A stretch of 64,000 nt of DNA from an uncultured virus (IMG/VR IMGVR_UViG_3300021400_004415). Its lineage: Duplodnaviria > Heunggongvirae > Uroviricota > Caudoviricetes. Within the stretch, counting starts at the first letter, position 1. Each line of letters opens with the position of its first letter. Position numbers and translations under genes: made by a program. Location: IMG/VR virus record IMGVR_UViG_3300021400_004415; one strand, written 5' to 3'. The notes beneath the pieces are model-generated. The model ran no database searches, had not been told where the DNA came from, and saw only the letters and a program-made list of their open reading frames with translations. This document shows, piece by piece, positions 676 through 64,000 of the stretch.

Positions 676-2109
676 CTAATATTTTTTCTTATAAATGGTT
701 CTTCTCTTATTTGTCCGTCCGGATTTCAAAATGTCATTCAGGATATCTATCCAGGACACGTGGGCAAGTTTTTGTTCTTCTGTCGTGACTGTCCTGTCGA
801 TTGTTTTAAGGAATTCATCACGGCTTGCCTGGTCGCGTAGTTTCTGCCTGTTGGCCCGGATCTCTTTTTCGGTCATCCATTTCTCTGCCTTTTCCTTTAC
901 TTCCTTCATATCGAGGGATGGAAGCAGGTCTGAGGCTTTGAAGGCATTCTTTGTCTTGGCGTCAACGAGTGTTATGCCGAAGAGCTCATTCATCACGTTG
1001 AACGAGAAGCCTACATAAATTCCTTTTTTCTCAAGGATTTTTTCAAAGTGTCTTTGTGATTTAGATATCCTGAGAGCAAAGGCCGCCATTCTTCCGACGC
1101 GGGCACGGTCGTGCTTGCTGGAGGACTTCATGGCGGCTATCTGCTCCTTCGTGGAGTTCTGCTGAAGCCTTGTCTCCACTTCTTTGTAGAAGTCCTTCCC
1201 AAGTTCCTTCTCATTGAAAGGGGTCTTTATGATGTCCCCGTTTTCATCGATTCCTTGGAAGCTCAGGCGGATTCCGGTTGCATCGTTATATGTAGATACT
1301 GTTACGCCAAGGCTTTCGCATACCGCCTTGAATTGGTTAAGTGTGGCGAACTGATAGGTCATTGCCTCTTCCAAGACCCGCAGGTATTGTTCCTTGACAT
1401 TCTTTCCCTTGGGGTCGAACCTTATTGAAGGTGCAATTGTCTCCGGTTCCTCCTGAGGTCCGTTCTCTGTTATGGAAGGTACGGTCCCTATGGGTGATAT
1501 TTCACTCATATCGAAGAGAGCGTCTTCCTGAATTCTTTCTGCAGGAACAGGTTCCATTCCGAGCGGGATTGGTTCGATTTCTGTTATATTGTTATATAAC
1601 AGCGGTTGTTCTTCGACGATTTTTTCCTTCTTGGTTTTCTTCTTGGGGTTTCCGACAGTATAGTGATACTTATCCGCAAGGCGGAGGATAAGTTTCTCCA
1701 TACGCTTCTTCTCAAACTTATCGTTGATTTTTTTCCCATGAAGGTCTACGCGACATGAGACGACATGGTAGTGTGTCCTGTCGATATCGAAATGCTTATA
1801 TATGATATACGGTTGTGAACCATAGCCGAGGGACTTCATAATATCCTTGGCGTAGTCGCAAGCCTCCTCGTCGGCGAGGACTTCCGATGGTTCCTCTGGA
1901 TTTGGATTGATGGACATTTGGAAACTGACATTCTCTGTACGTATGTTCCTTCTTTCCAGTCTTCCGAAAGTCATCCTTGCGAATGCCGGTTCAGGTGACG
2001 GCATCCCTCCGAACCCAATGACGGTCGCAATCCCCTTGCGTACCTTGCTTTCGTTGTACGTAAGGGTTCCGTTCATGCTTCCGCGGCTTTTATGAATCTT
2101 TACGACCAT
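676..2109 (-). CDS. Relaxase/mobilization nuclease (Bacteroidetes MobB-like)
   Basis: N-terminal TLTYNESKV (candidate catalytic Tyr), QPYIIYKHFDIDRTHYHVVS HUH motif, C-terminal FGITLVD..FKASDL; downstream of a MobC-like gene. Confidence 0.9.
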   Translation of the reverse strand: MVVKIHKSRGSMNGTLTYNESKVRKGIATVIGFGGMPSPEPAFARMTFGRLERRNIRTENVSFQMSINPNPEEPSEVLADEEACDYAKDIMKSLGYGSQPYIIYKHFDIDRTHYHVVSCRVDLHGKKINDKFEKKRMEKLILRLADKYHYTVGNPKKKTKKEKIVEEQPLLYNNITEIEPIPLGMEPVPAERIQEDALFDMSEISPIGTVPSITENGPQEEPETIAPSIRFDPKGKNVKEQYLRVLEEAMTYQFATLNQFKAVCESLGVTVSTYNDATGIRLSFQGIDENGDIIKTPFNEKELGKDFYKEVETRLQQNSTKEQIAAMKSSSKHDRARVGRMAAFALRISKSQRHFEKILEKKGIYVGFSFNVMNELFGITLVDAKTKNAFKASDLLPSLDMKEVKEKAEKWMTEKEIRANRQKLRDQASRDEFLKTIDRTVTTEEQKLAHVSWIDILNDILKSGRTNKRRTIYKKKY

Positions 2110-20632: not shown

Positions 20633-20654
20633 GGTGATTGTTGTTTGTTTTATA

Positions 20655-20895
20655 CCTTAACTTTGCTTGGATTTTCACCTGCTATGGGACCTTCGGGCCC
20701 ATGGTCTGGGGAAAATCTGAGCGAAGTGGCAAAGGGATAAAACCCTTCCCCGCAAGGGTTCTCCGCGAAAATACAACCGCAAGGCCCCGTCAAGGGGCCG
20801 CAGCCGAGCGCAGCGAAGGGGCTACCGCACGGTGGAGATTTTCGCGGGGAACAGCTCCGTCAGCTCTACTGACGAAGCCCCTTGCAGGGGAAGGG
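20655..20895. promoter_or_regulatory. Structured repeat element A, putative ssDNA promoter / ssi
   Basis: TAACTTTG at 20658 in hairpin 1; second long hairpin with AAAATAC..GGTGGAGATTTT core; closely related to elements at 37807 and 47628. Confidence 0.7.
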
Positions 20896-24457: not shown

Positions 24458-24625
24458 ATTAACCTTTGTGGAGCCTTTCAGTCCGCCACGGGGTCTCCGA
24501 CACCGTAGGCGGGCTTGAAAGGACGGAACTGGTAAATACAACGGAAAACGGGCGAGTGAGCACCGGAGGAAAAATACTACCCTTCACGGGTGGAGATTTT
24601 TCCTCCGGGCGCAGCCGCCGCGACT
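24458..24625. promoter_or_regulatory. Structured repeat element B, putative ssDNA promoter / ssi
   Basis: CCGGAGGAAAAATACTACCC..GGGTGGAGATTTTTCCTCCGG core hairpin plus an upstream hairpin with a degenerate AACCTTTG box. Confidence 0.65.
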
Positions 24626-37640: not shown

Positions 37641-37806
37641 TTTTATATTTTTTTTGGTTGTTACTTAGAAAGGGTACAGCCTCACCGTCTTTGACCGTAC
37701 CCTGAGATGTTGTGCTGAAATGCACTGAAAGAAACAATATGAGATGACGGATTTTCTTGCTTGTTGGATTTAGCGTTTTTGTCTTGGATTCTTCATTCGT
37801 TTTATC

Positions 37807-37992
37807 CCTTAACTTTGCTTGGATTTTCACCTGCTATGGGACCTCTGGGCCCGTAGTCTGGGGAAAATCTGAGCGAAGTGGTAAAGGGATAAAATCCTTT
37901 CCCGTATGGGTGAGGGCTAAAATACTACCCTTTCAGGGTGGAGATTTTAGCCCGAATAAGCGGAGCGAGCGAAGCCCATTCGTGGAAAGGAC
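37807..37992. promoter_or_regulatory. Structured repeat element E, putative ssDNA promoter / ssi
   Basis: First ~85 nt near-identical to element A; AAAATACTACCC..GGGTGGAGATTTT core. Confidence 0.7.
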
Positions 37993-41333: not shown

Positions 41334-41441
41334 AATGATTTCGATTTGATTGGTTTGTAGTGAATAGCCACCTTGTCAGAAGTGGCGCCATGAGAGAGGA
41401 ATAGGCGGGGCGACGGAGCGCCCTCGCCCAAGGAAGAAGGC

Positions 41442-41969
41442 TTAAGCTTCGTTTACCGCCACTGGCACAACGACGAAGGTGTTGTACAAGATGTAGTTTT
41501 CGATGATAAAGAAACCGTTGTAGTCACCCGCAACCCAAGCGGTGTTGGCGTCGTTACGAAGGCAAGACCAAAGGACAGAATCGGCGGGCAGAAGGTCTGC
41601 GCCCTCTATCTGTTTCGCAAGGGCATTGATTTCTTTCTCGTATTTCTTGATGGTTCCGGTGGTAAGTAGAGAAGCAATGTTAAACTTCTCTGCGATGCCA
41701 CGTACGAACTTCGCTGCCGGGCTGTCCAGCTTTAGTAGTTCATCGGTGCGCTCTTTGCAGAGGTCGGTGTCTTCGAAAAGGGCATTTAGTTTCGAGTGGC
41801 CCGGCTCCTTCCAGTCGTCAAAGCGACTGACTTCAAGAAGTTTACACTCCTTGTATTTAGGGTACACGAGGACGGCTTTGCCGTCAATTCTCGGAATAGA
41901 GATTCCTTTAATGGCATCCAGTTTCATTTCGCCCTCACGGCCTTCTTTGAAAATGATTTGAGGTTTCAT
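41442..41969 (-). CDS. Probable DGR target protein with C-terminal C-type-lectin-like variable region
   Basis: C-terminus LWSCLRNDANTAWVAGDYNGFFIIENYILYNTFVVVPVA; 19 of 28 codons in this stretch are NNC; GC hairpin just after the stop. Confidence 0.7.
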   Translation of the reverse strand: MKPQIIFKEGREGEMKLDAIKGISIPRIDGKAVLVYPKYKECKLLEVSRFDDWKEPGHSKLNALFEDTDLCKERTDELLKLDSPAAKFVRGIAEKFNIASLLTTGTIKKYEKEINALAKQIEGADLLPADSVLWSCLRNDANTAWVAGDYNGFFIIENYILYNTFVVVPVAVNEA

Positions 41970-41997: not shown

Positions 41998-42642
41998 TTA
42001 TCCTTTATATCTGGTTCCGTCTTCCGTGAACTCGTAAGTGTTACCAAGGATGGTTTCTTCGATGTTTTCATCATCGTAGTTATATTCCTGGTCGCGTTCC
42101 CACTGTTTAAAGAAATCGTGGAGCATATCGTCTATGAAATCCTTAATCGTGCGGTGCTTGCGCACGTATTCATAGCGTTTCTCCATGTAGTCGTCTACAA
42201 CGGCGCTCGTCCAGCTTCCGGTAAGGCAGTAGTTTCGCTCAAACAGCACCTTAGAATTACGCTTGGTGTAATCAAGGCCCGCAGGATGCTCTTTGTCAAC
42301 CGGAACTTTGCGGAATGAGGAAGAATAGAATCTTCCCTTTCGGCAGTACTGCTCCACCGCGTCCAGATAACGCACGAGGAATTTTGGTTCATTGCTTATA
42401 GTGGAGAATCTTGAGTTCTCATTGAAACGCCAAAGGGAATAGGTGCCGGGATAGCCCACGCACCAATCGTACACTTGGATTTCAAAGATTTTCTGAATCT
42501 TCTCCAGTGCGGAACGGTAATCGTCCGCATCGAAGTCGCAGAGCATGGAACCGATAGTTTCACGCATATTCTCCACGGCATTCTTTTTTGCCGTATCGGA
42601 GAGCTCGTCGTATTGGTAGATGTTAAGTGTGATTGTTCTCAT
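41998..42642 (-). CDS. Phage/plasmid-type hypothetical protein
   Basis: MRTITLNIYQYDELSDTAK..DENIEETILGNTYEFTEDG. Confidence 0.75.
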   Translation of the reverse strand: MRTITLNIYQYDELSDTAKKNAVENMRETIGSMLCDFDADDYRSALEKIQKIFEIQVYDWCVGYPGTYSLWRFNENSRFSTISNEPKFLVRYLDAVEQYCRKGRFYSSSFRKVPVDKEHPAGLDYTKRNSKVLFERNYCLTGSWTSAVVDDYMEKRYEYVRKHRTIKDFIDDMLHDFFKQWERDQEYNYDDENIEETILGNTYEFTEDGTRYKG

Positions 42643-44488: not shown

Positions 44489-46348
44489 TTAGGCGGCGTA
44501 GGTCCTGGTCTGCGTCTTCAGGACGATTTTCTTTACCACTGTCGATATGCCTTTTACGAGGTTCTGCATGTTGGACATGTCAATCCATTGGTCGTACATG
44601 GCTTTGAGTTCCGTCTGTGGTAGGCCGCTTGATATGGAGATTCCGATAATCTCGAAATTCTTCTTTTTGGCTTCCTCCACCGCGTTTCTTACGCTTATGG
44701 CTCCGCCGTTGGCCCCTCCGTCCGAGATGACGAGAAGCACGCTCTTTGTCTTTGACTTCTCGCGTATGCGCTTGACACTCTCGCGTATGGCCTCTGCGGT
44801 CGGGGTGCCGGAATGACTGGATATGCTTCCGAGGGTTTCCTTGTTGTAAGGCTTGCCCCATTCCCTGTAAGGGAAGAGAATGTTGTATTGGTAATCGTTC
44901 GTGTAGCCGTAAATGTTCAGTTCCACATTCGGGACATTGCCTACAGCCTCGTTGATAAGGACGGCTGTCTGCCGTGCAAGTTCTTCGCGTATGCCGTCCA
45001 TCGAGCCGCTTTCATCAATCAGGAGGCTGATATTTACCCTGTCGGGGCGTATTATCTCCTGCCTGCAGAAGACATTCTTGCTTCCCTGGATCGCTTCGGC
45101 GATTTTATTTCCGTCAAGCACTCCGCGTTTGAGGCCCGTCTGGTAGGTGTTCCTTTCGTGCCCGTGGATTGCAAGGGCCTTCGTTACGGCGGGGATATAT
45201 TTTTTTACGGCGTTGAGCGTCTTGCGGTATTTGTTTTTGTCGGGCTCCTTGCTTACCACTACGGCGTTGTCTCCGATTTCGAGTTCTCCTTCGGCGTCCT
45301 TGGCAATAAGGTGTCCGTCTATTTTCGCGGCTTGGGACATGTCCTCCTCCTCGATTTTCTGTCCGTTTTGACGGAGGTTGTCTTCAATGGCTTCGAGGAT
45401 TTTTTCAAGGATTTTTTCTATTTCTTCGTCGGTGAGGGGCTTCTTGCTTTTGGCGTTTTTGCCGGAGCCATTTCCGCCCTTGCCGCATCCACCCTCTTCG
45501 CCGTCCTCGCCGGATTCTCCGCCGGACTCTCCGTCGGACTCATTTTCATCCTCGTCGTCCTGGTCTTCAATGAATTCTTTTATGAGTTCATAGACTTCCT
45601 CGGCGGCGGTTATCGCTTCTGCGGTGTTCTCCGGATAGGGGGTAAGTATCTCGCGGGTCTTAATGAGTATGTCCACGAATTCTTCCACTTCTTCAATGCT
45701 CATTGCTGCCGGATAGCGAATGAGTTTCAGGATTGCGTTGAAGCATCTTGCGATTTTCTGAGTCACGGGTCCCTCTTCCTTTTCTTTCTTGCCGAAGTAG
45801 TAGTACTTGGTGGCCTTGAGGAAGTTTGCGAGTCCAGGACAGTCTTCGCCGAGGCGTCTTTCAATCATCTCGTCCTCTATCACATTTTGGATTGAGTGCA
45901 ACACCCTGTTGTTTGGCATCTTCTTGAACAGTTCGAAGTCCGAGTAGAGGAGGTGGCTTCCCTCATGCACGGCTTCGCCGATGAACACATCGAGTTTCTT
46001 TCCGAGCGAGAGTTCCTTGTCGTCGAAGACCTTCGTGGCTACCCACACTGTCTTGGAGTTCGTGCAGTTGTTGTCGCTGTTAATTTTCACCGTCACTTTA
46101 TAGGGGTGTCCCATAGAGGCAATCATATTCCTTGCAATGCTCATAGCGTTGCGGTAGAGGTCCTTGACTGTCTTGGGGTGCAGTATCGCCTCGGAGTAGG
46201 CGGAGTCCTTAGGGAGCGTGTCTTCCCAGCCGAGTCGGTCGGTGGTGCGGATACGCACATAGGTCTTTCCGTCTCTTTCGAGGAAGTCCTTTTCGAGGAG
46301 TTCAATCTTCTCCTGAAGGGACAGTGTGTTTATGTCTTGGTTCTGCAT
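44489..46348 (-). CDS. CobT-like protein: HExxH peptidase-like domain, acidic linker, C-terminal VWA domain
   Basis: AVHEGSHLL..NVIEDEMIE; D/E/G linker; LLIDESGSM MIDAS, GTPT, ISDGG. Confidence 0.88.
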   Translation of the reverse strand: MQNQDINTLSLQEKIELLEKDFLERDGKTYVRIRTTDRLGWEDTLPKDSAYSEAILHPKTVKDLYRNAMSIARNMIASMGHPYKVTVKINSDNNCTNSKTVWVATKVFDDKELSLGKKLDVFIGEAVHEGSHLLYSDFELFKKMPNNRVLHSIQNVIEDEMIERRLGEDCPGLANFLKATKYYYFGKKEKEEGPVTQKIARCFNAILKLIRYPAAMSIEEVEEFVDILIKTREILTPYPENTAEAITAAEEVYELIKEFIEDQDDEDENESDGESGGESGEDGEEGGCGKGGNGSGKNAKSKKPLTDEEIEKILEKILEAIEDNLRQNGQKIEEEDMSQAAKIDGHLIAKDAEGELEIGDNAVVVSKEPDKNKYRKTLNAVKKYIPAVTKALAIHGHERNTYQTGLKRGVLDGNKIAEAIQGSKNVFCRQEIIRPDRVNISLLIDESGSMDGIREELARQTAVLINEAVGNVPNVELNIYGYTNDYQYNILFPYREWGKPYNKETLGSISSHSGTPTAEAIRESVKRIREKSKTKSVLLVISDGGANGGAISVRNAVEEAKKKNFEIIGISISSGLPQTELKAMYDQWIDMSNMQNLVKGISTVVKKIVLKTQTRTYAA

Positions 46349-46359
46349 GGTCGTCTGAT

Positions 46360-47565
46360 TTATCTTGCCAGAATCATGTTCTTAACTATGGCCTTTTCGC
46401 CTTCTACTTCGGTTCCCTCGAAGAGTTCAAGGAAAATGCTCTCAAGCGCGTACTGTGTCGAGCGTCCCGCTTCTACATAGCGTGCTGCGTACATCACATC
46501 GCGGGTGGTAACCGTGTTGGAGAGGTCACCGGCAATGTACTTGTTCCTGACCTGTTCCGCCACCTTGGTTATGTTCACTGCGTCCGCCTGGTTGATTTTG
46601 TATTTCTCAAGTAGCCATGCTGCCTCTTTGTCGCGGGGCATGTATTTCAGCGTCTTTTCCCTGAAGCGGCTGCGGAGCGCCTTGTCAAGGGGATTGGTGT
46701 TATACTCGGGGCCCTCGTTGATTGTTGCCACGAAGCGACATTTAGGGTTTACCTTTATCTCCCTTGCGCTCTTGCTGTCCGCGAGTTCAATGAACATCGT
46801 CTGTCGGAAGTCAAGGATACTCATAAGGCTCGTGGAAGCCTCGTTGCGTGCCCTGTTGAGTTCGTCCAGAACGATTATGCATTCTGTCTGTATCTCCTGT
46901 GAGAAACGGGCGTAGTCAAAGACTGAACGGCCCCCTTCTATCCTGTGTACGCCCTGCATCTGGGCCACAGGGTCGAACATCGTTGACATGTCGTAGATGT
47001 GTACCGGTACACCGAACACCTTCCCGAGGAGGACTGCTATGGAGGTCTTGCCTGTTCCGGCAGGGCCTTTGAAGAGAATGTTCCTGCCGTCAATCATATC
47101 GAGAATGATATCCTGCCAGGTCTCGTCATTGATGTAGAAGCCCTCTTTCTGGATAGTCGGGGTGGCGTACATCGGATTGTTGACAATCTTGTCAATCATC
47201 TTCATCGGCCCGTTGTTGACGATCCTGGTCTTCTGTTCCACCTCGCCGTTGGCGAGTTGGTAGGCTACCCATTCATCCTTGGCCTGCTGGGGGGCCTCGT
47301 CGGCGGCGTCAATGACCCTGTCGCTCTTGATTACATAGAGTTTGTCTGCGGCAGCGTAGAAAGGAGTCTGTAAGGATGTCCGGAGTTCGCAAGCCGTGGA
47401 GGCGAAGATTGTCCCGTAGGGATACTTTCTTCTGACATTCGTGTCGCCCTGGCAGTTCAGGTTGGGGTTAATGTCTACGCCTGATTCATGGATTTGTTTT
47501 GCAAGCGGACGGAGTTTGTTGTCTTTACCGACTTGGACTGTGGTGAAGAAGTAGAATTTTTTCAT
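46360..47565 (-). CDS. MoxR-type (CbbQ/NirQ/CobS-like) AAA+ ATPase
   Basis: GPAGTGKT Walker A, IVLDELNRA Walker B, FVATIN, LDKALRSRF, TTRDV. Confidence 0.9.
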   Translation of the reverse strand: MKKFYFFTTVQVGKDNKLRPLAKQIHESGVDINPNLNCQGDTNVRRKYPYGTIFASTACELRTSLQTPFYAAADKLYVIKSDRVIDAADEAPQQAKDEWVAYQLANGEVEQKTRIVNNGPMKMIDKIVNNPMYATPTIQKEGFYINDETWQDIILDMIDGRNILFKGPAGTGKTSIAVLLGKVFGVPVHIYDMSTMFDPVAQMQGVHRIEGGRSVFDYARFSQEIQTECIIVLDELNRARNEASTSLMSILDFRQTMFIELADSKSAREIKVNPKCRFVATINEGPEYNTNPLDKALRSRFREKTLKYMPRDKEAAWLLEKYKINQADAVNITKVAEQVRNKYIAGDLSNTVTTRDVMYAARYVEAGRSTQYALESIFLELFEGTEVEGEKAIVKNMILAR

Positions 47566-47627: not shown

Positions 47628-47872
47628 CCTTACCTTTGCGAGAGATTTTTACCCGACCTATGGGACCTTTGGGCCCATGGGGATGGGAAAAATCTAAGCG
47701 AGGTAAAGGGAACAAAATCCTTCCGGTCAAGGGTTCCCCGCGAAAACACGACCGCAAGGCCCCGTACGGGGCCGCAGCCGAGCGCAGCGAAGGGGCTACT
47801 GCACGGTGGAGGTTTTCGCAGGGGAAGCAATGGAACGAGCTCCGCGAGTGGAATCCCTTGACTGGAAGGACC
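47628..47872. promoter_or_regulatory. Structured repeat element F, putative ssDNA promoter / ssi
   Basis: TACCTTTG box; shares ACCGCAAGGCCCCGT..GGGGCCGCAGCCGAGCGCAGCGAAGGGGCTAC with element A. Confidence 0.7.
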
Positions 47873-50752: not shown

Positions 50753-50940
50753 CTAACTTGCGTTAATTTCATCACCCCTGGCGGGGGCTTGTCCCCCAGA
50801 GGGGGTGGGAAATTTGCGCAAAGGAAAGCACCGGAACTTCTTGCCGGCAAGGGTTCCACAAGAAAATACTACCCCCTTGCGGGGTGGAGATTTTCTTGTG
50901 GAAGGAGCCGGAGGCGACCAGCGCCCTTGCAGGCGAGAAT
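50753..50940. promoter_or_regulatory. Structured repeat element G, putative ssDNA promoter / ssi
   Basis: TAACTTG box; TTCCACAAGAAAATACTACCCC..GGGGTGGAGATTTTCTTGTGGAA core; CAAGGG..CCCTTG stem. Confidence 0.7.
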
Positions 50941-52583: not shown

Positions 52584-52698
52584 CCTTTTCCGTGACCTTG
52601 CGGCACGGCCGTCCTCGCGCACGTATATATGCGCACGTACGCATTACTACGCTTGAAGCGTGTAACTATTTATTTTCTGTTTTATCTATTTAATAATG

Positions 52699-52994
52699 GT
52701 TACCACTTACTACTGACCGCTTTTTTGCGGATTTCGCTGCCAGAGTTGTCCCGGTGGGCGTTTTGCCCTTTTCCCGTTGGTTACCACTTACTACTGACCG
52801 CTTGCATAAAGTTACCACTTACTACTGACCGTTTTCGTTAAAGTTACCACTTACTACTGACCGCTGAGGGGTAAAGTTACCACTTACTACTGACCGATTC
52901 GTCCAAAGTAACCACTTACTACTGACCGCTCGGCCCAAAGTTACCACTTACTACTGACCGCCGGAGGGTTAAAGTTACCACTTACTACTGACCG
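52699..52994 (+). repeat. Iteron array, 8 x GTTACCACTTACTACTGACCG; probable replication origin
   Basis: Copies at 52699, 52780, 52811, 52843, 52876, 52908 (one mismatch), 52940, 52974; 31-34 bp period; AT-rich tract ~52660-52697; adjacent to Rep-like gene. Confidence 0.88.
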
Positions 52995-53044: not shown

Positions 53045-54331
53045 TCATTCTTCTGTTTTCTTGAAGTGTTCCCAGAATTTGAACTTGTCCGATAGTAGTG
53101 TTTTCTGGATCCAGCGGTCGTAATCTTTCTTGTCTTTGTACTTGGCGCACGATATGAGGAAATCAACCCTTTTTTCGATGTCGTTGGGGATTGTGGTGGC
53201 CGCGATGTTGATGAAGGTGTTGATTATGGCGGCCGTAAGGGTTTTCCTCAGGTTGTCGTTGTCATCGGCCAGCCATTCGAAGAAATACTTGTCAGCGTTC
53301 TTCATCTGTTCGTAGGAGCGGTAAGGACAGGCCAGGGCGAGTCCTATCTTGAGTTCGGTTACGGCGACGTCGAGCTTTTCTTCTCGTTTTATGGCCTGTA
53401 CGGCGTATCCGTCCTTCCCGATGACTTCTCCCACGGCTGGATTGAAGTGGAAAAGGGGAGTGTACTTCTCCTTTTCTCCATTGGATATCCACTCTACTTC
53501 AAAATCAAGCTCGGTCTCTTTGAAGATTTTTTGAAGTTTTGCATTGAGTTTGCTTTTCAAGAATTTCGGTTCCAGATTACCGCCCACCTTGGCAAGGGAA
53601 CACAGATAGGCGAAGTTGGGGGTGTCGTCAGGCGTCGTGCTTGTGAGTCCCTTTGCAAAGAGGGCTTCGCGGAGCCGGAGCAGGTGATGGTACAACGGAC
53701 CGAGGCCGCTCTTGCGGAGGTTGATGAGGCTCTGTGTGCTGGTCGTGAGGTAATAGGTCGAAAGGTTGCGGCGGAAGTCTTCTTCAAGCTGGTAGCCGTA
53801 GATTGTCTTCCCGGTGATGCGGTCCTGCTCGATGAAGAAGTTCTTGAGGATTCGCAGGGGCTGGATTTTCCTTACGAGCCTTTTTGTCGAGTTCTCGACC
53901 ATGGTGTTCATGACGTAGAGCGGCATGTACGATAGGGTGAATAGCGCGTTTTCTATATTGTTGGTGTAGACGGGCTTGTTTGTGTCGGTTGTACGGCGGC
54001 GCCTGTTGGTCTTTTCGTTGTTCCGGAAGTTCAGGACTTTCTGTTGATACGGCTTCTCGTTCTGTTTCTGGAGGAAATCGGGACGGAAACCGTATTTCTT
54101 CCCGAAGTCTTCCGGGTCGATAATCCCGAAGCCGAATTCATTGTACTGATGCTCGTAGCAGATGTCGTAGACAATGGATTCCGCGATGTGGTTCCCTGTT
54201 ACCTGGTAGAGCGCATCAAGGTTTTCCTTGGTGATAACGCTGCGGTCCATTCTGAAGAAGTCGGGGCTGTTGAAACTTTCGGTCATATCGAAATGCAATT
54301 TGTTTTCGGCAAAGATAATTGTTTCCGACAC
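53045..54331 (-). CDS. Probable plasmid replication initiator
   Basis: 428 aa, directly adjacent to iterons; call rests mainly on context, family not recognised with certainty. Confidence 0.6.
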   Translation of the reverse strand: MSETIIFAENKLHFDMTESFNSPDFFRMDRSVITKENLDALYQVTGNHIAESIVYDICYEHQYNEFGFGIIDPEDFGKKYGFRPDFLQKQNEKPYQQKVLNFRNNEKTNRRRRTTDTNKPVYTNNIENALFTLSYMPLYVMNTMVENSTKRLVRKIQPLRILKNFFIEQDRITGKTIYGYQLEEDFRRNLSTYYLTTSTQSLINLRKSGLGPLYHHLLRLREALFAKGLTSTTPDDTPNFAYLCSLAKVGGNLEPKFLKSKLNAKLQKIFKETELDFEVEWISNGEKEKYTPLFHFNPAVGEVIGKDGYAVQAIKREEKLDVAVTELKIGLALACPYRSYEQMKNADKYFFEWLADDNDNLRKTLTAAIINTFINIAATTIPNDIEKRVDFLISCAKYKDKKDYDRWIQKTLLSDKFKFWEHFKKTEE

Positions 54332-54357: not shown

Positions 54358-54388
54358 TTTTGTGTTTAAAAGAATTTGCTTATCTTTG
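54358..54388 (+). promoter_or_regulatory. Bacteroidetes -33/-7 promoter for the tra/pilus operon
   Basis: TTTG about 18 nt before TATCTTTG (54381-54388), 32 nt ahead of the ATG at 54421. Confidence 0.65.
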
Positions 54389-54420
54389 CACCGTGCCGGA
54401 AAGACCGGTGCATAGTGCTT

Positions 54421-55017
54421 ATGCTGAAAAAGATTTGTAATGTTCTGATTGTTTGCGCTTTGGTGTTCGGCCTTTCTGAAAGGGCGTTCGCCCAGCGTAC
54501 CATGGACGGACAGATGTTCGCTTCTGTTTCTTACGTCAACGGACTTTTCCCCGAAAGGGCCCTTACACAGATTGGCGGTGAAGCCAACCTGGGTCAATAT
54601 ATCCTTTCTTCCTGTTATTGGGAGGCCGGCGTACGCTACAACCCTCTGACAAAGATGCAGACGGTAGGAAGCCTGACCGCTTTCGGCGGCTTCAATTACC
54701 GTATCGCAAACACCCGTAACCGTGCGTTTAATCTTTATGCCGGCGGCAGGCTCTTCCTCGGTGTGGATTACACCGAAGGGTCCAATCCCGTGGAGGAGAT
54801 TGTCATCGGTACAGGCTCGTCTGTTCAGGTGACCGATATAGAGGTCGAGCCCGGGAAGACGCGTTTTATGATTGGTATCGACCCTGCCATTGAGATGGAA
54901 TGGTTCTTTGTCAAGAAGATTGCCCTGGTAGTCCGTGTCTCGGCCCCTGTTAAGTTTATGACTCAGCAGCAGTTCTTCTCCGGTAGGGCCGGGGCGGGAC
55001 TGCGCTTTAATTTTTAA
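54421..55017 (+). CDS. Outer-membrane beta-barrel, TraO-like
   Basis: Signal peptide AFA-QRTMDGQ resembles Bacteroides TraO N-terminus; ends GLRFNF. Confidence 0.55.
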   Translation: MLKKICNVLIVCALVFGLSERAFAQRTMDGQMFASVSYVNGLFPERALTQIGGEANLGQYILSSCYWEAGVRYNPLTKMQTVGSLTAFGGFNYRIANTRNRAFNLYAGGRLFLGVDYTEGSNPVEEIVIGTGSSVQVTDIEVEPGKTRFMIGIDPAIEMEWFFVKKIALVVRVSAPVKFMTQQQFFSGRAGAGLRFNF

Positions 55018-60210: not shown

Positions 60211-61356
60211 ATGAAAAAAATTTCTATTCTTTCCCTGACTGTCGCCGCCCTGTTCGGCGCTTTCTCCTGCAACAAGAACGTTGTTACTCCCGAGGAGCAG
60301 GTTCTTGGTGACCTCCCTAACGGTTCCCTTACCGTCAACATCGGCGCCGTCGATGAGACCAAGGCAGACCTTTCCGCCATGAAGGATTTCCGCATCAACA
60401 GTGTCCAGGTCTTCGTCTTTGACGCCAACAACCGTCTTGAGACCGACGTTTACAAGGACGGTATCAGCGCTGACAACAGCACTCAGGTTACTATCAACAC
60501 CAAGACCGGCGCCAAGACCGTTTACGCTCTCCTTAACCACAGCCGTCTGAGTTTCACTACCGGTTCTGCCGGACAGCTTCTGGCTGACTACGAGGCTAAG
60601 CTCACCGACCTCAGCGAGAACACCAGTGAGACCGACCTTGTGATGACCGGTAAGAACACCGTGAACGTTACCGATTACAACAACCAGGGCGCCGGTGGCA
60701 CTCCTCAGGCTGTTAACATCTTCGTGAAGCGTCTTGTTTCCCGCATCCAGCTTGACGGTGTAACCGTTGACTTCCGCGGTACTTCCCTCGAAGGTGCAGA
60801 CTTCACCGTTCAGAAGATTTATCTGAAGAACGTTGTTGGTAAGAGCCCTATCGGCATGCAGGGTCTGACTGGCGTTTCTGACGTTACTTCCACTATCCTT
60901 CCTAAGCTTCTTCCCGACGATCAGTATGATGTTGCTGCCAACTGGTACAACAAGATGAAGGAAGAGGCCGGCGCACCTGCCGTTATTTCGGATTCTTATT
61001 CCAAGGCTTGCAACGTGGCCGGCACCATGACCGACCTCAAGCGCGTTCTGTTTGCATTCCCCAACGCTACCAGCGGTGACAGCAATAACGCCACCTGGGG
61101 CAAGCGTCACACCCGTATCGCTATCAAGGCTCACGTTACCAAGTCTGCCGTAGGCATTGACAAGGACACCTACTATGTTCTTGACCTGCCCGTCCTCGTA
61201 GCTAACACTATCTACGAAATCGACAACATCAACATCACCCAGCTTGGTAAGGATGACGACAGCTCCGACGAGGGTATCAAGGTTGGTAAGGAGACCTACA
61301 CTATCACCGTGGATCCTTGGAACCCTACAATCACTCACCTGAACTACGAGTTCTAA
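60211..61356 (+). CDS. Type V pilus subunit, probable major fimbrillin (FimA/Mfa1-like)
   Basis: Lipobox FSC, TKA processing site, VQVFVFD, YALLN, VKRLVSRI, C-terminal ITVDPW strand; strongly biased codon usage. Confidence 0.85.
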   Translation: MKKISILSLTVAALFGAFSCNKNVVTPEEQVLGDLPNGSLTVNIGAVDETKADLSAMKDFRINSVQVFVFDANNRLETDVYKDGISADNSTQVTINTKTGAKTVYALLNHSRLSFTTGSAGQLLADYEAKLTDLSENTSETDLVMTGKNTVNVTDYNNQGAGGTPQAVNIFVKRLVSRIQLDGVTVDFRGTSLEGADFTVQKIYLKNVVGKSPIGMQGLTGVSDVTSTILPKLLPDDQYDVAANWYNKMKEEAGAPAVISDSYSKACNVAGTMTDLKRVLFAFPNATSGDSNNATWGKRHTRIAIKAHVTKSAVGIDKDTYYVLDLPVLVANTIYEIDNINITQLGKDDDSSDEGIKVGKETYTITVDPWNPTITHLNYEF

Positions 61357-61461
61357 TTTCTTCTGAGGGAATTGTCTGCGTCAGTCGCACTGCCATGACG
61401 GCTTGACGTAGCGGGCGGGAACAGATTCATAGGCTTTTGGTCTTCCCGCCCTCCCTTTCTC

Positions 61462-61555
61462 GGGGGACTGCCTGGCGCACTGGTCGCCGTATGACTTTCC
61501 GGACACAAAAATTCATTACGGCATCCTGGGGGTTCGACACCCTTGTCCTCCACAA
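61462..61555 (+). ncRNA. tRNA-like element with G3-U70/A73 acceptor stem and T-arm
   Basis: GGGGGAC pairs with GTCCTCC, then A-CAA; T-arm GGGGG-TTCGACA-CCCTT; central GCCGTATGA/TCATTACGGC helix; no canonical anticodon arm. Confidence 0.55.
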
Positions 61556-61569
61556 TTTTAAATTAAACC

Positions 61570-62415
61570 ATGAAGAAGTTTTTTATCATACTTTCCGCTG
61601 CCTTGGGCATCGTATCATGCAGGAGCCTCGTTCTTGAGAACAGGGTGGACTGCCCCAGTTTCCTTTATTTCGACATTGAGAACAGTGAGCGTTTCGAGGA
61701 CTGGGACAGCCTCTATGTCAACGTCTATGCGCATCCGAATGGTTCGCTTATCGACGAGGCCAAGACTATTATCTCTACCGTCCAAACTGAGGACAGGTCG
61801 AAGAAGTTCTACTTCGTCGTCAAAGGAACCGAAGCCGTCAAGGGCTACGGTCTCCTTGGGCAGGACGGGCTTATCCAGGACGGGACGTCATGGGTGACCC
61901 CTCTCGGAAGTGAGTATGCTCCGCTGTTCCGTTTCTCTTATATCGAGAATGTGCAGGAAGAATCGTTCACCGTCCCCGTGGAGTTCGTGAAGGATTACTG
62001 TCACGTAAAGGTTCAATTCGTGGGCTATGAGACCTTTGCAGCCGCTATGGGGCGTTTCCCTTTCGATGTCCTTATCCGCAGCAATACGAGCGGAATAGAC
62101 GCCCTTACGGGCATCCCCGTGCGTTCTCCGTTCGAGTTCCGCCCCGAGGAGAAGAAGGTCGGCTTCTTTGAGTTTAATTTGCCGCGTCTCGGCGACCAGA
62201 ACCTCACCATGGAACTCTACGGCCGTGAGGGCCTTGCCGAGAGGACGGGCCACACTGCGACGTTCGATCTGTACGCCGACCTGCTCAACCAGGGCGGCCT
62301 GACATGGACCGAGAAGAACCTTCCTGATGTGGATATCATCATCGACTACCAGGAGCACACCGTGAATATCAACGTCTGCGCCTGGTCGCATAACGATATC
62401 TCCTACGAGTATTAA
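61570..62415 (+). CDS. Type V pilus anchor subunit (FimB/Mfa2-like)
   Basis: Lipobox VSC followed by LENRVDCP; C-terminal INVCAW strand. Confidence 0.75.
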   Translation: MKKFFIILSAALGIVSCRSLVLENRVDCPSFLYFDIENSERFEDWDSLYVNVYAHPNGSLIDEAKTIISTVQTEDRSKKFYFVVKGTEAVKGYGLLGQDGLIQDGTSWVTPLGSEYAPLFRFSYIENVQEESFTVPVEFVKDYCHVKVQFVGYETFAAAMGRFPFDVLIRSNTSGIDALTGIPVRSPFEFRPEEKKVGFFEFNLPRLGDQNLTMELYGREGLAERTGHTATFDLYADLLNQGGLTWTEKNLPDVDIIIDYQEHTVNINVCAWSHNDISYEY

Positions 62416-62435
62416 ACCGTAAACCAGTGTCAGTC

Positions 62436-63197
62436 ATGAGTAAGAGATATATCATAGCAGCAGCCTTTTTGGGCGTAGTCCTTTTCGGTGGCCTGTCTTG
62501 CAAGAAAGCCCCTGTGGAAGAGAAGGACGCCTTCACCGTGGCACTTTCCTTCAAGGCTTCTCCGACTCTCTCCCAGAGTATCCCTTCGCGTTTCCGCGTG
62601 AGTTTCTTCACTGACGGCGTGCAGACAGCCGTAAGGGATATCGAGAGTGTCAAGATTATGAATGAAGGATTCCTTTTCGACGTGGTCCGTGGCACCGAAT
62701 TCGAGTTGTCCGCCGTTTACGGCTGGCCTTATGGCACGGAGTGGTACCAGAACGGTTCCATTTCCATTCCGTATGGTTGGATGATGCCCTCCGCCGGAGG
62801 CGCTTATATCAAGGAGGCTTTTCCCTCTGACAAAGAGGCTCATATACCCTTCGGGCTGGAGTTCAGGAAACTCTATTACGAGTTCCCTGTCATCATTGAA
62901 GGTGAAGAGGGAGTGAAGTACACCGTCTCGTTTGACTGCAAGGTGGCGGGCTTCTCCTGGCCCGAACTGGAGCCCCTTCCGGGACACTATCACTACGAGA
63001 TAGAGATTGACGGCAAGGGACACGACACCGTGCGTATCCCCGTCATTGATGACAATGCGGTGATGGACCTGTCCGTTACCGGACGCGACGCGGACGGGGT
63101 TGTGGTCTACGGGCCGGAGAAGGAGATGTGCCTTGGTTCCGTCGTAAGCGGCAAGGATGGAGAGGTGTTCTCCGTGATTAAGAGGATTGGAAAATAA
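62436..63197 (+). CDS. Pilus-locus lipoprotein (FimB-like paralog)
   Basis: Lipobox LSC; partial similarity to the preceding gene. Confidence 0.55.
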   Translation: MSKRYIIAAAFLGVVLFGGLSCKKAPVEEKDAFTVALSFKASPTLSQSIPSRFRVSFFTDGVQTAVRDIESVKIMNEGFLFDVVRGTEFELSAVYGWPYGTEWYQNGSISIPYGWMMPSAGGAYIKEAFPSDKEAHIPFGLEFRKLYYEFPVIIEGEEGVKYTVSFDCKVAGFSWPELEPLPGHYHYEIEIDGKGHDTVRIPVIDDNAVMDLSVTGRDADGVVVYGPEKEMCLGSVVSGKDGEVFSVIKRIGK

Positions 63198-63215
63198 AAA
63201 AAATAAAACTACGAT

Positions 63216-64000
63216 ATGAAAAGTTATATTAGAACTGTTTTGCTTGCAGCGGCCTTGGTAGCTGCCGCATCGTGTGCGAAACCTCTTTCATCGGTTCCGA
63301 CTCACCGCACCGTGGTCGAGGGTGAGCGTGTCACGCTCTCTTTCTCGGCCTTGGACGGGCTTCGGGCAACCAAGTTGACGGGGGTCTCGGAGGCCAACGA
63401 AACGAATATCGCCAGGTGGGCGGTCTTCGCTTTCGAGGATGCTACCGGCCTGGTGTCGTACGGCACGTCTTCTTCTTCCGCTCCAATCAACATGACTCTT
63501 ATTGCGGAGCATGATTACACTATCTACGCAGTGGTGAATTACCCCACGAGCGGGATCGGGGCTCTTGACCCTTCCGCTATCAGCACTGCTTCCGATCTGA
63601 CGAACAAGGTGTCTTATCTGACCGATAACACTTACAATCGTCTTCTTATGTTCGGCAGCACCACCCTTACCCCTGCCCGGCTTGACTATGATCCGGAGGA
63701 TGCCCCCGGCACTTATACTCCGGAGTCCGTCACTATTAATGTGCAGAGGATGGTCTCGCGTGTCGACGTGGTTAAAGTGGCGGTGGATTTCAGCGCCAAG
63801 CCGCATCTGGCGGCGAAGACATTCACCCTTAAGGGGCTTTATCTGACTAATGTGTATCGTACTGCCCGTTACGGTTCCGATTACGCTTTCTCGGAGCTCA
63901 GTGCCACCAGGACGGCTTGGTATAACACTGGCGGCTGGCATCGCGGCGAGTCCGCCGATGCGGGCATCGACGCACTTGCAAGCAACACCGGCATCAACGT
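63216..64000 (+). CDS. Type V pilus minor subunit (DUF4906-like), runs off window edge
   Basis: Manual translation MKSYIRTVLLAAALVAAASC..ATKL..WAVFAF..YTIYAVVN..VQRMVSRVDV; open to the edge. Confidence 0.8.
   Translation, partial: MKSYIRTVLLAAALVAAASCAKPLSSVPTHRTVVEGERVTLSFSALDGLRATKLTGVSEANETNIARWAVFAFEDATGLVSYGTSSSSAPINMTLIAEHDYTIYAVVNYPTSGIGALDPSAISTASDLTNKVSYLTDNTYNRLLMFGSTTLTPARLDYDPEDAPGTYTPESVTINVQRMVSRVDVVKVAVDFSAKPHLAAKTFTLKGLYLTNVYRTARYGSDYAFSELSATRTAWYNTGGWHRGESADAGIDALASNTGIN

Follow-up and report, generated by a model that had tools for sequence, protein, structure and literature searches.

The gene for P0001, encoded in the window (the whole 64,000-nt stretch of DNA analysed here), belongs to an unannotated, mostly phage-borne family of variable proteins of diversity-generating retroelements (DGRs). 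Members of this family are genuine non-adjacent DGR targets in three phage lineages, where they form the second target of DGRs whose first target lies in the tail module. The window copy, on a conjugative element of Bacteroidales, is probably an orphan DGR target that is static at present. The initial annotation had proposed a gene for a DGR-type variable protein, diversified in trans; the first part of this proposal was borne out by the phage relatives, and the second was not supported for the window copy.

P0001 is 175 aa long, with its ATG at 41969 and its stop codon at 41442-41444 on the minus strand, as given by the ORF and its translation (features are collected in Table 1). A longer ORF starting at 42074 was ruled out as the gene because the homologs share the start methionine of P0001. 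The protein begins with MKPQIIFKEGREGE and ends in the motif LWSCLRNDANTAWVAGDYNGFFIIENYILYNTFVVVPVAVNEA, and in its last ~45 residues fixed positions alternate with NNC-coded ones. This motif reads as the initial annotation had claimed, and its count of 19 NNC codons out of 28 was about right on recount; between W134 and V170, 20 of the 37 codons end in C. Composition alone is nevertheless insufficient for a DGR claim, since the excess of NNC in the last 45 codons (22/45 versus 45/130 elsewhere in the gene) gave a Fisher p of 0.11 and third-position C reaches 26-53% in the neighbouring genes. The enrichment became significant once the variable positions were taken from the family alignment: at the 18 family-defined hypervariable columns the window copy has NNC at 15, five of them AAC, versus 52/157 elsewhere (p=5e-5). 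With its ORF, variable repeat (VR) scaffold and hairpin intact and five AAC codons left at variable positions, the gene has the appearance of a still-targetable VR.

Table 1. Features of the window discussed in the text (positions of the window; strand where given)
Feature	Position	Strand	Basis or remarks
P0001 gene, predicted standalone C-type-lectin-fold protein without signal peptide	41442..41969	-	ORF, homologs, AF2, fold matches
VR region, ~codons 131-172, homologous to TR-matched VRs of relatives	41455..41579	-	Hypervariable alignment columns, codon entropies, NNC, alignment to G003/L151 TRs
GC-rich stem-loop, 14 nt past stop; putative homing element	41404..41428	-	9 bp, one bulge, 6-nt loop; dG -11.3 kcal/mol, z -1.9
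Upstream gene, 214 aa, phrog_10310 (function unknown)	41998..42642	-	28 nt from P0001; PHROG E 5.6e-30
Relaxase	676-2109		Left part of window, as is MobC
Eight direct repeats (iterons), ~31-32 nt, core GTTACCACTTACTACTGACCG	52689-52994		Beside 428-aa ORF
428-aa ORF, no Pfam match	53045-54331	-	Adjoins iterons
TraO	54376-55017
FimA-like (P_gingi_FimA) gene and further lipoprotein-signal ORFs	60211-63998		After DUF3575 and OmpA-like genes

P0001 matched no family in Pfam (0 families at E<=0.1), NCBIfam or PHROG, and no meaningful match to PDB sequences came from a profile search (best E 0.51). A large protein collection contained 68 relatives at E<=0.001, nearly all of 165-190 aa, and the ESM Atlas placed P0001 near mostly viral clusters of ~180 aa, some of them auto-named DUF1566. 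No match was obtained by tblastn of P0001, P0055 and P0062 against 50,697 GenBank phage records, or of P0001 against PLSDB plasmids. In an alignment of 52 of the 68 relatives (A2), residues 1-131 are well conserved and are followed by the C-terminal pattern LWSCxR-xx-A-xx-AW-x-A-x-G-xx-GFF-x(8-10)-VVPV, in which the x positions vary even among proteins ~80% identical elsewhere. The residues found at x are almost exclusively NNC-encodable (Y, S, G, N, D, H, C, F, I, L, V, A, R and T).

Codon variation was analysed in 55 distinct family genes, with DNA taken from the relatives' loci. Under ordinary coding evolution the third codon position is less conserved than the first two, and this is how the 32 hypervariable N-terminal columns behave, with entropies of 1.41, 1.32 and 1.65 bits at codon positions 1, 2 and 3. 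The 21 hypervariable C-terminal columns gave mean entropies of 1.58, 1.42 and 0.97 bits, and C was retained at the third position in 40-51 of the 55 genes. The variation at codon positions 1 and 2 to which the initial annotation had pointed is therefore present among homologs, and a conserved third position beside variable first and second ones reads as the trace of AAC-to-NNC mutagenesis. In the mechanism that we propose, an error-prone RT would copy the TR RNA and randomise its adenines, turning AAC into NNC, and the cDNA would then replace the VR, guided by the 3' end of the VR and the downstream hairpin (mutagenic retrohoming); the C-terminal beta-hairpins of P0001 (residues ~133-172) would have been written by a DGR in this way.

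Direct evidence for DGR targeting came from three sets of phage sequences. The first is G003, a 68,152-bp IMG/VR record of a temperate tailed phage with large terminase, tape measure, integrase, Erf and SSB genes, the TerL of which is nearest to that of Bacteroides phage LoVEphage (62.6% identity). Its DGR cassette (15.6-18.8 kb) is on one strand: the tail module ends with a 425-aa cis target, after which come, in order, a 151-aa accessory ORF, a 118-nt TR and a 392-aa RT (phrog_1423, E 5.8e-25; RVT_1, E 1.2e-6, below Pfam's cut-off). All 17 mismatches between the TR and the cis VR lie at TR adenines, and so do all 18 between the TR and the VR of the P0001 homolog. The homolog occupies 52.0-52.7 kb, at a distance of 36 kb; small ORFs without a structural role surround it, the integrase is close by, and the tail genes are on the other strand. 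The second is G020, a 31-kb provirus record in which only TR adenines distinguish the TR from two VRs, the cis VR (14/14) and that of a family member 22 kb away (14/14). The third is L151, found in IMG/VR with a degenerate scaffold pattern, which has a cassette of a 388-aa target, a 151-aa accessory ORF, a TR and a 392-aa RT; its TR shows 18 adenine and no non-adenine mismatches to the family VR of another record (L014), and 16 adenine and one non-adenine mismatch to that of L015. The family VR is homologous to the VRs of the tail-module cis targets. On the strength of these three independent TR/VR sets, the family is a genuine non-adjacent DGR target, and at the level of the family a TR with its RT, adenine-specific variation and a predicted lectin fold were all found. 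The family resides mainly in temperate Bacteroidales phages, as a second, non-structural DGR target.

Two side observations concern these phage loci. L019, a metagenome contig sister to G003, carries another VR on the shared scaffold. Compared with the G003 TR this VR has lost one base, which shifts the frame and lengthens the ORF (…STSICIAAIPLCPCRILKN…); the same frameshifted protein recurs as P0029 (6 member sequences). Either a DGR made this indel, or it arose when a mixed VR population was assembled. In G020 (L139/L140) the RT match is split and contains two in-frame TGA codons, yet the TR fits two VRs by adenine-only differences. This split RT recalls the RT in overlapping frames of Quimbyvirus, as described in the accessible part of PMC8008677.

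Orphan copies of the gene are common, as concluded from three kinds of observation. G021 has a complete DGR (cis VR 19/19), but its TR is unlike the VR of its own family member, and the RTs of G006, G026 and G027 go with no match to any family VR. Seven phage-like records rated 100% complete (G004, G005, G009, G016, G017, G019 and G023), three of them with terminal repeats, carry a family member and no TR or RT. Finally, no convincing TR was found within +-10 kb of the loci of 78 relatives (best, 57 nt at 74% and 30 nt at 83%), flanks that do not reach the 22-36 kb at which the known TRs sit from family members. A literature search on orphan DGRs and template repeats gave no account of VR genes without a DGR.

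The gene content of the window identifies it as part of a Bacteroidales conjugative element. Besides the relaxase and TraO, it encodes MobC, two SSBs and ParA, and no virion genes were found among the Pfam-scanned ORFs. The eight direct repeats and the adjoining 428-aa ORF look like an iteron-type replication origin with its initiator, and the FimA-like gene with its lipoprotein-signal neighbours reads as a type V pilus-like cluster on the conjugative element, in which no VR-like sequence was found. About 38 kb separate the P0001 gene from the relaxase. The gene is part of a 45-kb block (~7.8-52.6 kb) in which all genes have one orientation, which includes SSB, DprA, a ComM-like ATPase, RadC, RNase H, DUF1848 and a C5 methylase, and which resembles a leading or accessory region. 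The genes that the window has in common with the relatives' loci are an HTH protein (8 loci), the phrog_10310 gene (5) and a C5 methylase (3), and none of its conjugation genes is shared with other family-bearing loci. The phrog_10310 copy in G003 is 69% identical to that of the window.

Several further features of the element were noted. An anaerobic ribonucleotide reductase, NrdD (795 aa, Pfam E 7e-189), is encoded between the relaxase and the type IV coupling protein (L150, G001:C105), an unusual cargo position, with its first ~223 codons inside the window at 1-670 on the minus strand. A MoxR/VWA-type pair, made up of a VWA-domain protein (619 aa) and an AAA_5/CbbQ-like ATPase (401 aa), occupies 44489-47565 on the minus strand, a few kb upstream of the P0001 gene. 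An intergenic element of 60-116 nt and 83-95% identity is scattered through the minus-strand gene block (20644-20850, 24571-24600, 37796-37948, 47658-47823 and 50826-50894); folded as minus-strand ssDNA, the copy at 37790-37950 forms a long hairpin (dG -28.1, z -4.95, 0/200 shuffles as good). Candidate roles for the repeat are those of single-strand promoter, terminator and small RNA, and Rfam gave 0 matches in the whole window. A variant contig from one sequencing run (X4) equals the window over 41824 to ~42108 and differs from it in the upstream gene at 53 of 872 bases with seven gaps, which suggests a recombination boundary within 41998-42642.

The window and its surroundings were searched for a TR and an RT. 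As the initial annotation had stated, neither is present in the window: blastn and an adenine-blind sliding scan returned only the VR itself, no RVT Pfam match (RVT_1) was found among the 88 ORFs, tblastn of the G003 RT gave nothing better than E=0.24, and no homolog of the G003 accessory protein was detected. The near-copy of the VR beside an RT that was expected in the rest of the replicon or in the host was found neither in the 4 kb to the left of the window nor in the nearest genome compared (G001, 65% complete, containing 79% of the window's words), where Pfam families and protein queries revealed no RT and no TR was seen. When IMG/VR was scanned with a degenerate pattern of the window's VR scaffold, 0 matches to a TR or VR were obtained. 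Aligned without gaps, the three known TRs show 22-28 non-adenine mismatches to the window VR, and the L151 TR, aligned by eye, shows ~8 together with a 6-nt insertion. The replicon exceeds the window at both ends: G001 contig C105 extends 4 kb to the left (NrdD, T4 coupling protein), and the L013 contig, identical to the window over 20.5 kb, runs ~24 kb past its right end. A ~66-kb circle with 2 kb outside the window, as the 65,959-bp L013 contig might imply, was ruled out by C105, which runs 4,012 nt past the left end without wrapping round. Because the replicon is larger than the window and G001 is 65% complete, a TR and an RT elsewhere in the element or host are possible.

The VR also appears to be static. 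It is identical in the window, L013 and G001, the last of which differs only by a 3-nt deletion upstream of the VR. It is identical again in contigs of three sequencing runs (X1-X3) and carries one synonymous change in the contig of a fourth (X4; 41466, V168), in which the neighbouring upstream gene is the divergent one described above; since these four runs derive from one sample, possibly the source of the window itself, and contigs drop rare variants, this comparison is neither independent nor sensitive, and low-level diversification would be invisible in it. The closest relative, P0003, is 85% identical to P0001 N-terminally and has 11 of the 18 variable residues in common with it, with small indels in the VR. 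P0006 is equally close N-terminally and has 3 of the 18 in common, and the median fraction in common over 139 pairs with >=80% N-terminal identity is 0.28. The 11 residues common to the window copy and P0003 look like ordinary descent and not like re-randomisation. Among the substitutions that separate the two at variable positions are N>Y, N>S and I>V; such adenine-site changes are compatible with partial re-diversification. On our reading, a DGR of an ancestral or donor phage wrote the window VR a single time, and the VR has since been inherited as ordinary sequence. The window copy keeps an intact ORF, VR scaffold and hairpin, with no cognate TR or RT found nearby.

The alternative that survives best is that the window copy is an active remote target, with a DGR in the same element, the host chromosome or a co-resident prophage diversifying its VR in trans, as the initial annotation had it. 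The family is targeted non-adjacently over 22 and 36 kb in phages, the ORF, VR scaffold, five AAC codons and hairpin are intact, the replicon reaches beyond the window on both sides, and plasmid-borne DGR components acting in trans are reported in the accessible part of Wu et al. (PMC5758913). Against this stand the absence of a TR or RT from the window, the 4-kb left flank and G001 (65% complete), the empty IMG/VR scan, the distance of the known TRs from the window VR (>=22 non-adenine mismatches, ungapped), a VR that stays the same across the assemblies and, apart from the synonymous change in X4, across contigs from a single sample's four runs, and the 11 variable residues in common with the closest relative. 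We consider active targeting in trans rather unlikely, and keep to the orphan, static target as the reading of the window copy.

The hairpin that the initial annotation had noted after the stop codon is present. In a 56-nt stretch folded as ssDNA, 8 of 200 shuffles were as stable as the native sequence, and by itself the window hairpin is weak evidence. Of 55 distinct sequences downstream of family genes, however, at least 26 have a GC-rich stem-loop 7-20 nt past the stop, with stems that vary by subfamily (GGCGGGGCG/CCCTGCC, GGCAGGAGCGCG/..., GGGCGAGGGCG/...), and in G003 a hairpin also follows the cis VR and none follows the TR. The target-site hairpin of phage BPP-1 is likewise GC-rich and just downstream of the VR, with a loop of 4 nt compared with 6 nt in the window. 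The family stem-loops fit the hairpin described for BPP-1 by Guo et al. 2011 (PMC3240598). The position is that at which DGR targets carry their homing hairpin, and the window hairpin is a putative homing element. It may also be a terminator; no T-run was found after the family hairpins.

To characterise the protein, its structure was predicted with AlphaFold (AF2, alignment A2; mean pLDDT 94.1, pTM 0.89) and compared with 48,161 chains using VIA-align. The top match, with Z 13.5 over 169 aligned residues, was a fimbrial protein of Bacteroides ovatus (4eps_A, residues 293-534). The C-terminal domains of Legionella Lcl (8q4e, Z 11.2) and Bdellovibrio Bd2740 (8oks, Z 9.5) were also matched, and dozens of C-type lectin domains scored Z 5-7, with 6.2 for the DGR protein TvpA and 5.6 for Mtd (1yu0). 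Foldseek gave E 6e-4 for 4eps and 0.01 for 8q4e. The lectin fold expected by the initial annotation is accordingly predicted with high model confidence; in the model a single lectin-like domain, of the type seen in Lcl_C/DUF1566 proteins and Bacteroides pilus tips, makes up the whole of P0001, and the VR forms the C-terminal end of the predicted C-type-lectin fold. P0001 has no match to Pfam Lcl_C (PF07603, formerly DUF1566), and 2 of the 52 family members match it (best E 0.06); given a fold match of Z 11.2 in the absence of a Pfam score, P0001 would work like Lcl_C without scoring as a member. The lack of a signal peptide claimed in the initial annotation held: by inspection, P0001 has neither signal peptide nor lipobox, its N-terminus MKPQIIFKEGRE contains no hydrophobic signal, and residues 4-7 are a strand of the modelled fold.

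These features bear on where P0001 acts. One possibility is an accessory adhesin on the virion or at a surface, such as a receptor-binding tip that can detach; the copy on the conjugative element would in that case be a stray phage gene with no role there. Structurally P0001 comes closest to the C-terminal binding domain of a pilus-tip protein of Bacteroides (4eps, Z 13.5), homology links the family VR to those of tail-module targets, and FimA-like pilus genes are present in the same window. However, P0001 is without the lipoprotein signal and N-terminal pilin domains that mark type V pilus tip adhesins, and its N-terminus is taken up by a strand of the fold; the G003 copy sits apart from the tail module, on the other strand; and an intact, conserved ORF is maintained on an element that has no virion genes. 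An adhesin is improbable on this evidence. P0001 is best read as a small cytoplasmic binding module. Tentatively, and at somewhat less than an even chance, it may serve as a specific intracellular binder when mobile elements and hosts come into conflict. Expression early on entry and a role in counter-defence, both part of the initial annotation, are hypotheses for which the setting of the gene is suggestive and Quimbyvirus offers a published precedent (PMC8008677).

A bolder proposal joins such a function to diversification, and we regard it as very improbable. The element would borrow the DGRs of co-resident prophages and rewrite its VR across replicons, prophage tail-fibre VRs offering the same scaffold, 3' end and hairpin, and P0001 would be an early-made, adaptable intracellular binder that neutralises variable host defence proteins. 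Weakest of all, and close to refuted, is the view that the C-terminus has no link to DGRs and is a fast-evolving surface loop under diversifying selection with NNC as local codon usage, for which the p of 0.11, neighbours with up to 53% third-position C and the lack of a TR for the window copy can be cited, but which is opposed by three TR/VR pairs whose 14-18 mismatches are confined to TR adenines (the sole exception being the one in L015), by the conserved third position beside hypervariable first and second ones, by a predicted fold that is the CLec fold of known DGR targets, and by a window VR that aligns codon for codon with the TRs of relatives. We therefore return to an orphan DGR target, at present static, as the most probable description of the window copy.

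DGR targets are usually surface or virion proteins adjacent to their retroelement. Mtd of Bordetella phage BPP-1 and P0001 both have a C-terminal VR in a CLec fold; Mtd, however, is reportedly a trimeric tail-fibre tip adjoining its DGR, whereas P0001 is a small, non-structural protein whose gene has no DGR found with it in the window. Further likenesses are described in the accessible part of Wu et al. 2018 (PMC5758913), which covers non-adjacent phage targets within 50 kb and short targets consisting of DUF1566 only. The proteins of its target category 'd'/CLec2 (DUF1566, DUF823, Fib_succ_major; for example Legionella LdtA) have, like P0001, little beyond the lectin domain, and their VRs show the same C-terminal pattern, W-S-x...A-W...G...V-x-P-V (PMC5758913). 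Proteins of the LdtA type are surface lipoproteins according to the same source, whereas P0001 has no signal. Similarly, the accessible text of Macadangdang et al. (10.1101/2024.11.15.621889) describes a Bacteroides DGR 'domain group 1' of type V pilus-like folds (4EPS/4QB7/5NF4), 70% of them prophage-encoded, which has the same best structural template as P0001, 4eps; these proteins are exported and have pilin or other N-terminal domains, whereas P0001 is the binding domain alone, at 175 aa.

A published precedent is that of the 'Quimbyviridae' phages of Bacteroides. As set out in the accessible part of Benler et al. 2021 (PMC8008677), these phages, like G003, have one DGR target in the tail module and a distant second one of C-type-lectin type. 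The second, non-structural target sits among methyltransferases and other defence and counter-defence genes, and a role in phage-host conflict was proposed for it in Quimbyvirus (PMC8008677). No sequence link between Quimbyvirus and the P0001 family was seen by tblastn against the 50,697 GenBank phage records, among which the presence of Quimbyvirus is unconfirmed, and the window copy differs in being on a conjugative element with no DGR found with it. The ~175-aa, signal-less lectin-fold family stands as a distant second DGR target in temperate Bacteroidales phages, and a family that is blank in Pfam, NCBIfam and PHROGs can now be named as a DGR target family. It bears on what non-structural hypervariable phage proteins bind, and on whether VR genes such as the window copy are frozen fossils or borrow a DGR from another replicon. 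Set beside these systems, the kind is known already, namely a non-structural, non-adjacent, lectin-fold DGR target; what is added is an unannotated family of that kind, three TR/VR links for it, its frequent occurrence in records in which no DGR was found, and its presence on a conjugative element.
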